A stretch of 64,000 bases of DNA from positions 729,784 through 793,783 of the forward strand of contig CP064957.1 of the NCBI GenBank assembly GCA_016699045.1, given 5' to 3'. A program made the position numbers and the translations under genes. Origin of the DNA: a bacterium (GTDB lineage Bacteria; Babelota; Babeliae; Babelales; RVW-14). The notes beneath the pieces were generated by a model. The model saw only the letters and a program-made list of their open reading frames with translations. It was not told the origin of the DNA and searched no databases. Within the stretch, counting starts at the first letter, position 1, and the number at the start of each line of letters is the position of its first letter. Shown here piece by piece: positions 62,351 to 64,000 of the stretch.

Positions 62351-64000
62351 TTATTCCCTTTTTTGTTTTTTTTGCCATGCTGTGTATTCTTCTGAGGTCA
62401 TTTCTTCTTTGCCCTCTGCATCGCTATTGCTTCGCTTACGTTTTTTTGAATTATCTATTTTTGTAACATTAGGAAACATTGCTCTGTAGGCAGGTGCAAG
62501 TTGTTCATAAATTTTATACCATCCTTTATCAAGATAAATTATTTCGTGCTTTCCTGTGTGTTGGTGACCCAATTTGTGTATAAGTATAAACTGTGTAAAT
62601 GATGGGAATGTGTATATAGCAACTTTTGTTTTGTCTACAGATTCCGTGGCGATGGTATTGTTATCAATCATAATGGTTGAGTAAGTTGAGCCTAAACGAG
62701 TTGCGCTCTCTGTGAGATCGGCAAGCCATTCCCAGTCATGTGCAGAAAGGCTGCGACGAGTCCATATTTTTATATAACCATTACCATCACTCGTGATAAT
62801 GGTGGTGAGATCGAGGATGGTTATATAAGAAATCCAGTAGGTATGGCGATGCTCGCCTGCAAGGTTTGCAACCAAATGCCAGTTTTGCATGTCTGGCGTA
62901 CATGTCCACACGGATGCTATGCCGCTGCTCGATCCGGTAATGACAGTATGGCGATCAAATTTTATTATGAAGGAAATCCAGTCTTGGCTGTTGTGCTCAT
63001 TTGCAAGGTCGGCAACCCATGCCCAGGTATTAATGTCTGGTGTGCGCGTCCATATTTTTGCTGTATGGTCTAATGATCCAGTAACAATAGTGTTGGGATC
63101 AAGGGCGATTGTTTGATAAATGGAGTCTGTATGTCCATGGTCGCCTGCAAGATCAGTTGACCAATCCCAAGAATTTGTGTCAGGATTTTGTGTCCACACT
63201 TTGGCGGCATGGTCCCATGATGTGGTAACAATGGTATGGTCATCGAGTTTTGTTAAGCTGGTGATAGGGCTTTCGTGGCCGTGCTCGCCAGCAAGATCGG
63301 CAACCCACGTCCAATTATTGGTACCAGGAGACCGGGTCCATGTTTTGACGGTCTGATCGTGCGAGCCGGTGACAATAGTATCGTCATTAAAGATGATTAC
63401 TGATAAGATAGTTCCGGTATGTTGGTGTTCTCCAGCAAGATCTGCAACCCACTGCCAATCGTTGGTGCCAGGAGTTTGAGTCCATACCTTGGCGGTACCA
63501 TCGTGTGATCCAGTAATAATAGTATTACGATCAATTTTGGTGATCTTAGAAACCCAATGAGTGTGTTGATGTTGTCCAGCAAGGTCAGCAACCCAGTACC
63601 ACGAGTTGGTATCAGGGTTACGTTTCCATACTTTGGTCGTATTGTCTCGAGATCCGGTTACAATTGTATTGTCATCAAGTGGCGTGATAGTCAAGATGTC
63701 TGCTTTGTGGCAATGGTCGTCAGTAATTATTTGGTGTAGCAACTGAGTATTGATATTGAATTTTTTGCAAAGATAAAAAATTGATATGTTTTGATTGTCA
63801 GCCAATATTTTGCAAAGGTTTATAGCCTCAAAGTTTAATGGTTCATTGAGTTTGATAGTTGCTATCAATTCTTGTATTCCTGGCAAAAAAGCAAGTTCTT
63901 GTAAAAAAGGAATATCTCTTGCTGTTGAATATGATCTTGACGATGAGCTGCTGCCGGCAGGACTTACTGCGGGTATGCTGATCGCAAGTGTGAGTGTTAA
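62351..64000 (-). CDS. WD40-repeat (8-blade) protein with F-box-like N-terminal segment; 5' end beyond window
   Basis: Eight ~48-aa units G(E/D)HxHTxxIxSxxxxDxxTIVTGSxDxTAKVWTxxPxTNxWxWVADLA. The minus-strand frame stays open from 63886 to the window edge (…ARDIPFLQELAFLPGIQELIATIKL…), so the ORF-track TTG start is probably not the real start. Confidence 0.8.
   Translation of the reverse strand, partial: LTLTLAISIPAVSPAGSSSSSRSYSTARDIPFLQELAFLPGIQELIATIKLNEPLNFEAINLCKILADNQNISIFYLCKKFNINTQLLHQIITDDHCHKADILTITPLDDNTIVTGSRDNTTKVWKRNPDTNSWYWVADLAGQHQHTHWVSKITKIDRNTIITGSHDGTAKVWTQTPGTNDWQWVADLAGEHQHTGTILSVIIFNDDTIVTGSHDQTVKTWTRSPGTNNWTWVADLAGEHGHESPITSLTKLDDHTIVTTSWDHAAKVWTQNPDTNSWDWSTDLAGDHGHTDSIYQTIALDPNTIVTGSLDHTAKIWTRTPDINTWAWVADLANEHNSQDWISFIIKFDRHTVITGSSSGIASVWTCTPDMQNWHLVANLAGEHRHTYWISYITILDLTTIITSDGNGYIKIWTRRSLSAHDWEWLADLTESATRLGSTYSTIMIDNNTIATESVDKTKVAIYTFPSFTQFILIHKLGHQHTGKHEIIYLDKGWYKIYEQLAPAYRAMFPNVTKIDNSKKRKRSNSDAEGKEEMTSEEYTAWQKKQKRE
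62606..63720 (-). repeat. 8 tandem ~144-bp coding repeats (WD40 blades)
   Basis: Periodicity is seen in the translation. Shadow ORFs on the opposite strand (62738-63356) also repeat. Confidence 0.8.

Follow-up and report, generated by a model that had tools for sequence, protein, structure and literature searches.

A long open reading frame (ORF) that runs off the edge of a bacterial genome segment raises the question of whether an intracellular bacterium encodes a mimic of the F-box/WD40 receptors of eukaryotic ubiquitin ligases, or a repeat protein directed at its host in some other way. The segment analyzed here (the window) comprises 64,000 nucleotides (nt) of contig CP064957.1 in assembly GCA_016699045.1 (positions 729,784–793,783). 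The gene in question, termed X, occupies 62351–64000 on the minus strand, with 549 codons followed by a stop codon at 62351–62353 and a 5′ end that is cut by the window edge. X encodes a genuine WD40 β-propeller protein, and it is probably best explained as a Sec-exported, host-directed WD40 scaffold of an intracellular parasite of the Dependentiae. The FBXW-type architecture that an initial annotation assigned to X, in which an F-box precedes the propeller, fails every profile and conservation test.

From the N terminus, X is predicted to consist of a signal peptide, a short Ser-rich linker, a helical region of ~70 aa, seven or eight blades, a helical C-terminal module, and a basic tail that resembles a nuclear localization signal (NLS). 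The translated frame is stop-free as far as the window edge, and the TTG at 63886 is merely the first possible start inside the window, with no evidence that it is the real one. The GC content around the gene (0.407) is the same as the window average and thus gives no sign of recent transfer; recent horizontal acquisition was rejected on this basis. Terminator-like sites are absent around the gene, and promoter-like sites occur at chance level.

The propeller is the best-defined part of the protein. Seven WD40 blades of 48 aa each (aa 95–430; 62711–63718, minus strand) are supported by Pfam, a blade-by-blade alignment, an AlphaFold2 (AF2) model, and Foldseek. The Pfam WD40 hidden Markov model (HMM; PF00400) matches X in five stretches, with E = 3.4e-17 and a score of 62.6 bits (cut-off, 27). 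Motifs of the form T[IV][IVA]T recur at aa 112, 160, 208, 256, 304, 352, 400, and 449, a spacing of exactly 48 aa for seven units and of 49 aa to the eighth, which is one residue out of phase. Eight units of ~48 aa had been proposed at first; seven are clear, with an exact period, and the eighth (aa 432–465; 62606–62707, minus strand) is degenerate, consisting of strands a–c only before the chain passes straight into the different C-terminal module. An eighth blade is nevertheless plausible, in that its d-strand, absent here, might be supplied by the N-terminal part of the chain, as happens in other WD40 propellers. The conserved linker that was also proposed is real (consensus ...TNxWxWVADLAG).

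The consensus of aa 95–430 is EHxHTxxIxxITxLDxNTIVTGSxDxTAKVWTRxPDTNxWxWVADLAG, and the structural tetrad residues His, Ser, Asp, and Trp of EHxH...TGSxDxTAKVW are kept in blades 1–5. Units 1–5 are mutually 50–58% identical in amino acids, with identities to the other units of ~40% for unit 6, ~28% for unit 7, and 8–29% for unit 8. At the DNA level, blades 1–6 are 51–65% identical pairwise, and Tandem Repeats Finder reports no DNA-level repeat in X. Because blades 1–5 are so similar, the version of the propeller found in the window has probably been remodeled through intragenic blade duplication or homogenization. Six of the seven clear blades open with [DEQ]HxH (DHCH, QHQH, EHQH, EHGH, DHGH, and EHRH; blade 6 has EHNS), which adds a second histidine two residues ahead of the canonical "GH" histidine. 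Such residues may line up as a histidine ring close to the top face or the central channel of the propeller, possibly for binding of a metal, phosphate, or ligand.

The AF2 model, which was run on an alignment of distant WD40 matches, contains 28 strands in seven blades (residues 104–429), with a predicted local distance difference test (pLDDT) score of mostly 80–95 in blades 1–6 and 53–66 in blade 7. Residues 1–75, unit 8, and most of the C terminus have a pLDDT below 50. The model is confident for seven blades and of low confidence for the parts outside the WD40 repeats. Foldseek searches of the PDB returned RACK1, G-beta, and CIAO1 for the model (E ~1e-15; TM(target), 0.66–0.75); these are generic seven-bladed WD40 proteins, and FBXW propellers are not singled out. 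By sequence, the best natural PDB matches of the propeller are β-TrCP1, FBXW7, and FBXW11 (E ~1e-16).

The N terminus of X has the features of a Sec-type signal peptide, as judged by inspection and orthologue alignment. Four relatives, introduced below, start with MKRFL(S/T)LSL..., after which come small residues. The first residues in the window, LTLTLAISIPAVSPAGSSSSS, align to this family start with exactly four residues (MKRF) missing. The remnant in the window aligns to MKRF-LSLSLIALTLNTPLFGAA and MKRFLSLSLIALTLALPVANPAAS of these four family members; the signal peptide of the orthologues reads MKRF-LSLSLIALTL-NTPLFGAA, and that of the window (..)-LTLTLAISIPAV-SPA|G. The alignment therefore identifies the sequence upstream of 64000 as the n-region of such a signal peptide. 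The true start does lie beyond the window, as had been stated, but this is trivial, since by the alignment only ~4 codons are missing and they would encode the beginning of a signal peptide, not a further domain. In the orthologues and the window together, a basic n-region, a hydrophobic h-region, small residues at −3 and −1, and the lack of a lipobox Cys all agree with Sec type I. The part of the signal peptide that remains in the window covers aa 1–16 (63953–64000, minus strand; h-region LTLTLAISIPAV, c-region SPA|G) and is followed by the Ser-rich low-complexity linker SSSSSRSYST (aa 17–26; 63923–63952, minus strand), as read directly from the sequence. A reading of X as a lipoprotein was rejected as there is no Cys, and C-terminal sorting signals (LPXTG, PEP-CTERM) were rejected as no hydrophobic segment follows the motif.

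A possible exit route is encoded in the same window. The region 23902–33113 on the plus strand contains a type II secretion system (T2SS)/type IV pilus-like cluster consisting of a GspC-like gene (23902–25212; Pfam T2SSC), a GspD secretin of 1048 aa (25231–28377; Secretin, Secretin_N, and GspD_N0), a PilM/GspL-like gene (28374–30074; PilM_2 and T2SSL), and a second GspD secretin of 830 aa (30621–33113; Secretin, Secretin_N, and GspD_N0). This cluster is likely the exit route for proteins with signal peptides. The presence of two GspD secretins matches the two gspD copies reported for all TM6 genomes, in which WD40 and F-box domains, along with leucine-rich repeat (LRR) and tetratricopeptide repeat (TPR) domains, are also widespread (PMC4776705). 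In Babela massiliensis, the T2SS is the only secretion system detected, most of the 126 ankyrin proteins have signal peptides, and WD40 and other β-propeller proteins are encoded, some of which are predicted to be secreted (PMC4378268). In Chromulinavorax destructans, signal peptides are found on 44% of coding sequences and on 78% of ankyrin proteins (PMC6561590). For the repeat proteins of these Dependentiae, secretion into the host through the T2SS is predicted (PMC4378268, PMC6561590, PMC4776705). X shares with them its phylum and the combination of a Sec signal peptide with eukaryote-type repeats (ankyrin, WD40, or β-propeller) in a genome that has T2SS genes, and as for those proteins secretion itself is predicted. 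It differs from the proteins described there in its N-terminal helical region, C-terminal module, and basic tail, as well as in its fixed position between a DUF1015 gene and groESL in three closely related genomes.

Other signal-peptide-like N termini occur in the window at 39677–41956 and 47486–48901 on the plus strand and at 16943–18283 and 38699–39433 on the minus strand. Three of these four proteins (759, 446, and 244 aa) lack a Pfam match, and the remaining one is a clostripain-family C11 peptidase. They fit the secretome known for Dependentiae, which is rich in signal peptides and ORFans.

The genome belongs to Candidatus Babeliales (Dependentiae/TM6), an obligately intracellular, protist-associated lineage, as comparison of the neighboring genes indicates. 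The MutS-like neighbor of X shares 65–67% identity with proteins from two Candidatus Babeliales metagenome-assembled genomes (MAGs), and 92% with a fragment that comes from the assembly of a sequencing run. The gene order nusA–infB–lpxK–GT4–nfo–(ankyrin genes)–MutS-like–DUF1015–X–Y–groES–groEL is found in GCA_019746485.1 and GCA_019749895.1. This identity and synteny bear out the intracellular setting that the initial annotation had suggested.

Synteny also defines a family. It comprises five proteins from three genomes, including the window: X itself, its orthologues in the related loci L001 and L003 (514 and 485 aa), and a paralogue, Y (403 and 396 aa), which lies upstream of X and has a Ser run after the signal peptide that is much longer than in X of the window. 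The HMM built from the blades of the window matches both X and Y, the latter weakly. Pfam WD40 is reached by X of L003 (E = 2.5e-8), which NCBI names "WD40 repeat domain-containing protein," and X of L001 falls below the threshold. All five members have the C-terminal module and a basic, Lys/Arg-rich C-terminal end, in which Lys547 and Arg548 are invariant. In X of the window, the tail contains two basic clusters, KKRKR and KKQKRE, the latter at the very end (62354–62455, minus strand), and is NLS-like. Scans with protein patterns of genome, metagenome, and viral contigs found no relative, a scan of metagenome contigs for exact 48-mers found no match, and the contig index that was searched does not contain the exact protein encoded by nfo of the window. 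The family has not been described before, and its parts outside the WD40 repeats have no Pfam model.

The family diverges much faster than its surroundings. Between the window and the two MAGs, flanking proteins are 66–92% identical, in contrast to 22–24% for X. Between L001 and L003, flanking proteins are 83–100% identical (NusA, 100%; Nfo, 96%; groESL DNA, 100%), and X and Y are only 31 and 38% identical, respectively. Along L001 13195–16000, nucleotide identity to L003 is 38–62% across X–Y and 82–100% in the flanks, and the sole conserved spot in this islet is a window of 72% identity over the signal-peptide codons of X. X and Y thus make up an islet of hypervariable sequence whose place in the chromosome is fixed, a pattern that would fit an arms race between parasite and host. 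Expansions of F-box and BTB genes in amoeba-associated Chlamydiae are similar in that they are lineage-specific, fast-evolving families of eukaryote-like genes, related to ubiquitination, in protist endosymbionts (PMC4209131); the Chlamydiae families carry a recognizable F-box or BTB domain, and the X family carries none that is recognizable.

These features suggest the following scheme. The signal peptide would direct X through SecYEG into the periplasm, and the T2SS that is partly encoded in the window would release it from the bacterium. In the host cell, the propeller would act as a binding scaffold for one or more host protein targets, and the basic tail possibly directs X to the nucleus. 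Several points weigh against this scheme. Expression, secretion, and the host target of X are predictions; the signal peptide, whose first ~4 codons lie outside the window, fits a periplasmic or surface location equally well; the family consists of the five proteins mentioned; and the nearest relatives of the propeller, at 28–33% identity, carry an F-box or Skp1-POZ domain, which makes a cryptic connection to ubiquitin ligases possible.

A different view of X is that of a protein of the bacterial envelope, for example, a periplasmic or surface β-propeller such as an assembly factor similar to BamB or TolB, or an adhesin for attachment to the host. Eight-bladed periplasmic propellers do exist, BamB being an example. 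A signal peptide is present in X, the subsequent secretion step is predicted only, and Ser-rich linkers are frequent in surface proteins. However, the extreme divergence relative to flanking genes and the variable blade number are atypical of housekeeping envelope factors, X has neither a lipobox Cys nor a Pfam match of the PQQ/BamB type, its WD40 sequences are nearest to FBXW propellers, and the NLS-like basic tail is conserved. An envelope protein is unlikely overall, with the qualification that these objections are not decisive against the adhesin variant.

A connection to ubiquitin ligases could reside behind the propeller. The C-terminal module (FPSFTQFILIHKLG...GWYKIYEQLAPAYRAMFPNVTKI; aa 465–515; 62456–62608, minus strand) directly follows the last β-strand and is family-specific. 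It has the pattern [LF]P-x5-L-x2-KL, 8–16 residues, and then WY-x-I-x2-L-x-P-x6-F, in which Pro, Leu, Lys, Leu, Trp, and Tyr are invariant in all five members. An HMM of the module, run against every ORF of the window and of 11 loci, recovers just the five family members. Searches with the module found no match in Pfam or among PDB sequences, and its alignment yielded no match among 5.8 billion proteins.

Among the nearest relatives of the propeller in databases are two genuine F-box/WD40 proteins (P0001 and P0003) and a Skp1_POZ/WD40 protein (P0005). P0003 is a bacterial protein of 484 aa, encoded on a 1.4-Mb MAG contig that is rich in ankyrin and F-box-like genes. Its locus (L012, 130–9742) contains two tandem WD40 genes amid F-box-like and ankyrin genes and IS605 OrfB. 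P0005 is a metagenome protein of 486 aa in which a WD40 propeller is joined to a Skp1_POZ domain (39.5 bits), together with a signal-like N terminus; a fusion of Skp1-like and WD40 parts is unusual. P0003 and P0005 resemble X in the propeller (33% identity over half of the query), hydrophobic signal-like N termini, and size, whereas X lacks the F-box-like domain of the former and the Skp1_POZ domain of the latter, and both lack the [LF]P...WY module of X. Such relatives, together with the FBXW-like matches, raise the prior for some ubiquitin-ligase connection.

In this context, X could be a cryptic adaptor of cullin-RING ligases in reverse order, in which the C-terminal module is a degenerate F-box that docks the propeller on host Skp1 or, alternatively, a motif similar to a BC box docks it on Elongin C. 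The family-invariant Pro, the Leu residues at +7 and +11, and the Trp at +24 to +29 coincide with hallmark positions of F-boxes, and hhalign places the module against F-boxes in the same register across 34 columns (score, 12.8; P = 0.047; reached by 7 of 200 shuffles). An N-terminal VPxLxxL motif (VPSLRSLA, VPTLKSIT, or IPFLQELA) is similar to the BC box of SOCS proteins (score, 13.5; P = 0.04; 5 of 200 shuffles), a likeness confined to the BC part. Comparison of the whole module with SOCS boxes, for which the reference set was validated, gave a score that 18 of 200 shuffles reached or exceeded, and no family member has a Pfam match to the SOCS box (PF07525). C-terminal F-boxes behind a repeat domain have precedents in ankyrin proteins of poxviruses and Orientia tsutsugamushi (Ank-PRANC), in which the repeat domain precedes a short C-terminal helical motif that opens with LP, an order that X would share if the module is an F-box (PMC4148323, PMC9414399). 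The similarity is marginal. X has WD40 repeats instead of ankyrin repeats and no PRANC or F-box HMM match; in addition, export of X would depend on a Sec signal, unlike Ank-PRANC proteins, which are delivered by type I or type IV secretion systems or by viral expression.

Against an adaptor of this kind, neither similarity remains significant once the number of comparisons (four) is corrected for, the hhalign probability is ~1%, and none of the five members has a Pfam F-box, PRANC, or SOCS_box match at E ≤ 10. A PDB sequence match is likewise absent, and AF2 gives a single low-confidence helix in the module. A reverse-order adaptor is accordingly a rather improbable reading, and its fullest version, in which the module is a post-propeller dock, F-box-like or of another cullin-adaptor type, and X and Y are fast-diversifying secreted receptors on the host Skp1–cullin–F-box (SCF) ligase that act in the nucleus ("WD40-PRANC"), would be slightly less probable again.

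The initial annotation had placed the F-box at the other end of the protein. In that model, X mimics an FBXW-type SCF substrate receptor, in which aa 39–66 would bind host Skp1 and the propeller would recruit substrates for ubiquitination. The candidate segment, LPGIQELIATIKLNEPLNFEAINLCKIL (63803–63886, minus strand), lies in the N-terminal helical region (aa 27–94; 63719–63922, minus strand), which has no assigned function. Searches of the whole protein and of its isolated N-terminal 104 aa with Pfam F-box (PF00646), F-box-like (PF12937), F-box_4/5, and PRANC at E ≤ 10 gave no match. The same procedure detects an F-box protein encoded near the locus in a Babeliales relative (PF12937; E = 4.6e-7) and the F-box-like domain of P0003 (27.6 bits; cut-off, 24.3). 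A custom F-box HMM, built from 13 sequences (10 reference F-boxes, all of which Pfam confirmed above threshold, and three from matches and loci), gave no alignment anywhere in the window protein with filters off. Comparison of the N-terminal alignment of three X orthologues with F-boxes by hhalign scored 9.6, which 51 of 200 column shuffles equaled or exceeded, whereas true F-boxes, including that of the Babeliales relative, scored 25.7–45.5 in leave-one-out tests.

Other properties of the segment point in the same direction. Its "LP" is replaced by SP or KS, and its "CKIL" by HNLM or NNPF, in the syntenic orthologues, and the core hydrophobic positions of helix H1 are occupied by Gln, Glu, Ala, and Thr. 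The N-terminal region as a whole is weakly conserved among X orthologues, with invariant Pro, Leu, Pro, Tyr, and Lys residues, and AF2 predicts five short helices in it (pLDDT, 32–57). A phmmer search with the N-terminal 95 aa gave no matches among 1.84 billion representative proteins, and a PDB sequence profile search with this region gave none either. The distance from "LP" to blade 1 is only ~59 aa, as opposed to ~110–125 aa in P0003. In β-TrCP, the spacing is likewise ~110–125 aa. The candidate matches the 10-position F-box consensus given earlier at five positions, a level (at least 5 of 10) that occurs at 3 of 19,222 long-ORF positions in the window, namely the candidate, rpoB (6 of 10), and one other. 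The segment is thus slightly unusual for its place, and is nonetheless judged a chance resemblance.

Comparison with the eukaryotic proteins that the model invokes leads to a similar view. X resembles β-TrCP1 (FBXW1A), FBXW7 (Cdc4), and FBXW11 in its WD40 propeller of 7–8 blades, the signature DDxxIVSGSxDxTxKVW, and a helical segment before blade 1. Unlike these proteins, X has no detectable F-box and has the extra C-terminal module and basic tail; its N terminus is a predicted Sec signal peptide, which the cytosolic FBXW proteins are without, and its alignments to FBXW chains in the PDB stop short of the F-box or linker. The FBXW matches of the propeller, the domains of P0001, P0003, and P0005, the rarity of the consensus match, and the real F-box proteins encoded nearby in relatives do favor an FBXW mimic, yet the profile and conservation evidence given above makes that model very improbable. 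As the F-box is unsupported, the FBXW-type architecture is unsupported as well. A tie of X to host ubiquitination is unproven.

That X is a decaying remnant with no selected function is scarcely credible, for although the blades of orthologues are partly degenerate, X of L001 falls below the Pfam WD40 threshold, and an in-frame stop in infB shows at least one defect in the sequence of the window, X has 549 stop-free codons, seven well-kept blades with intact structural residues, and a signal peptide, C-terminal module, and tail that are conserved over three genomes.

The neighbors of X in the window are nusA, infB, lpxK, a GT4/MraY-like transferase gene, nfo, the MutS-like gene, and a DUF1015-like gene, whose label comes from an orthologue of 66% identity, as the window ORF itself has no NCBIfam match. 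ORFs at 2153–10595 are assigned to rpoB/rpoC by size and position only, and an Rfam scan of the window detected tRNA-Val only. Two distant Babeliales loci (L008 and L010) have the MutS-like gene in common with the window, and show neither the synteny nor the X/Y family.

The MutS-like protein (59005–60876, plus strand) contains MutS_III and MutS_V domains only, which is odd for a MutS homologue. It has a hydrophobic, signal-peptide-like N terminus and a conserved His/Cys-rich insert, DGHCHHHDHQHKHHHHGCDGHSC, that resembles a metal-binding site, and its relatives across Babeliales (P0018–P0023; 36–92% identity) are unnamed. The infB gene, which encodes IF-2 (53354–55777, plus strand), has an in-frame TAA at 54551–54553 inside the GTPase domain, where both Babeliales relatives have AADDGVKPQTVE. 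In DNA, CCACAA has become TTATAA, that is, three C-to-T changes in six bases (Pro to Leu, and Gln to stop). As infB is essential, the change points to an error in sequencing or assembly or to a local artifact of the deamination type; a real pseudogene or read-through is possible.

The relatives contain extra effector-type genes at L001 8585–9881 and at L003 6684–7388 and 8464–9883. Two ankyrin-repeat genes lie between nfo and the MutS-like gene, and in one relative a gene for a 234-aa protein with a signal peptide and an F-box (Pfam F-box-like; E = 4.6e-7) lies between the GT4 gene and nfo. These ankyrin and F-box genes are missing from the window, in which the intergenic positions 58106/58109 and 58951/59005 are empty. 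Such presence and absence indicate that small effector islets are gained or lost between housekeeping genes.

With the attractive annotation as an FBXW mimic corrected, X is another secreted eukaryote-like repeat protein, by prediction, of a class already described in Dependentiae. It also defines a small unannotated family, with a signal peptide, propeller, C-terminal module, and basic tail, at a fixed locus by groESL. The X–Y islet, with identities of 31–38% compared with 83–100% in its flanks, is a candidate determinant of host range or of an arms race with the host, and blade homogenization may be one way in which the propeller is remodeled. If the C-terminal module does dock onto host cullin-RING ligases, the family would represent a new bacterial adaptor architecture.

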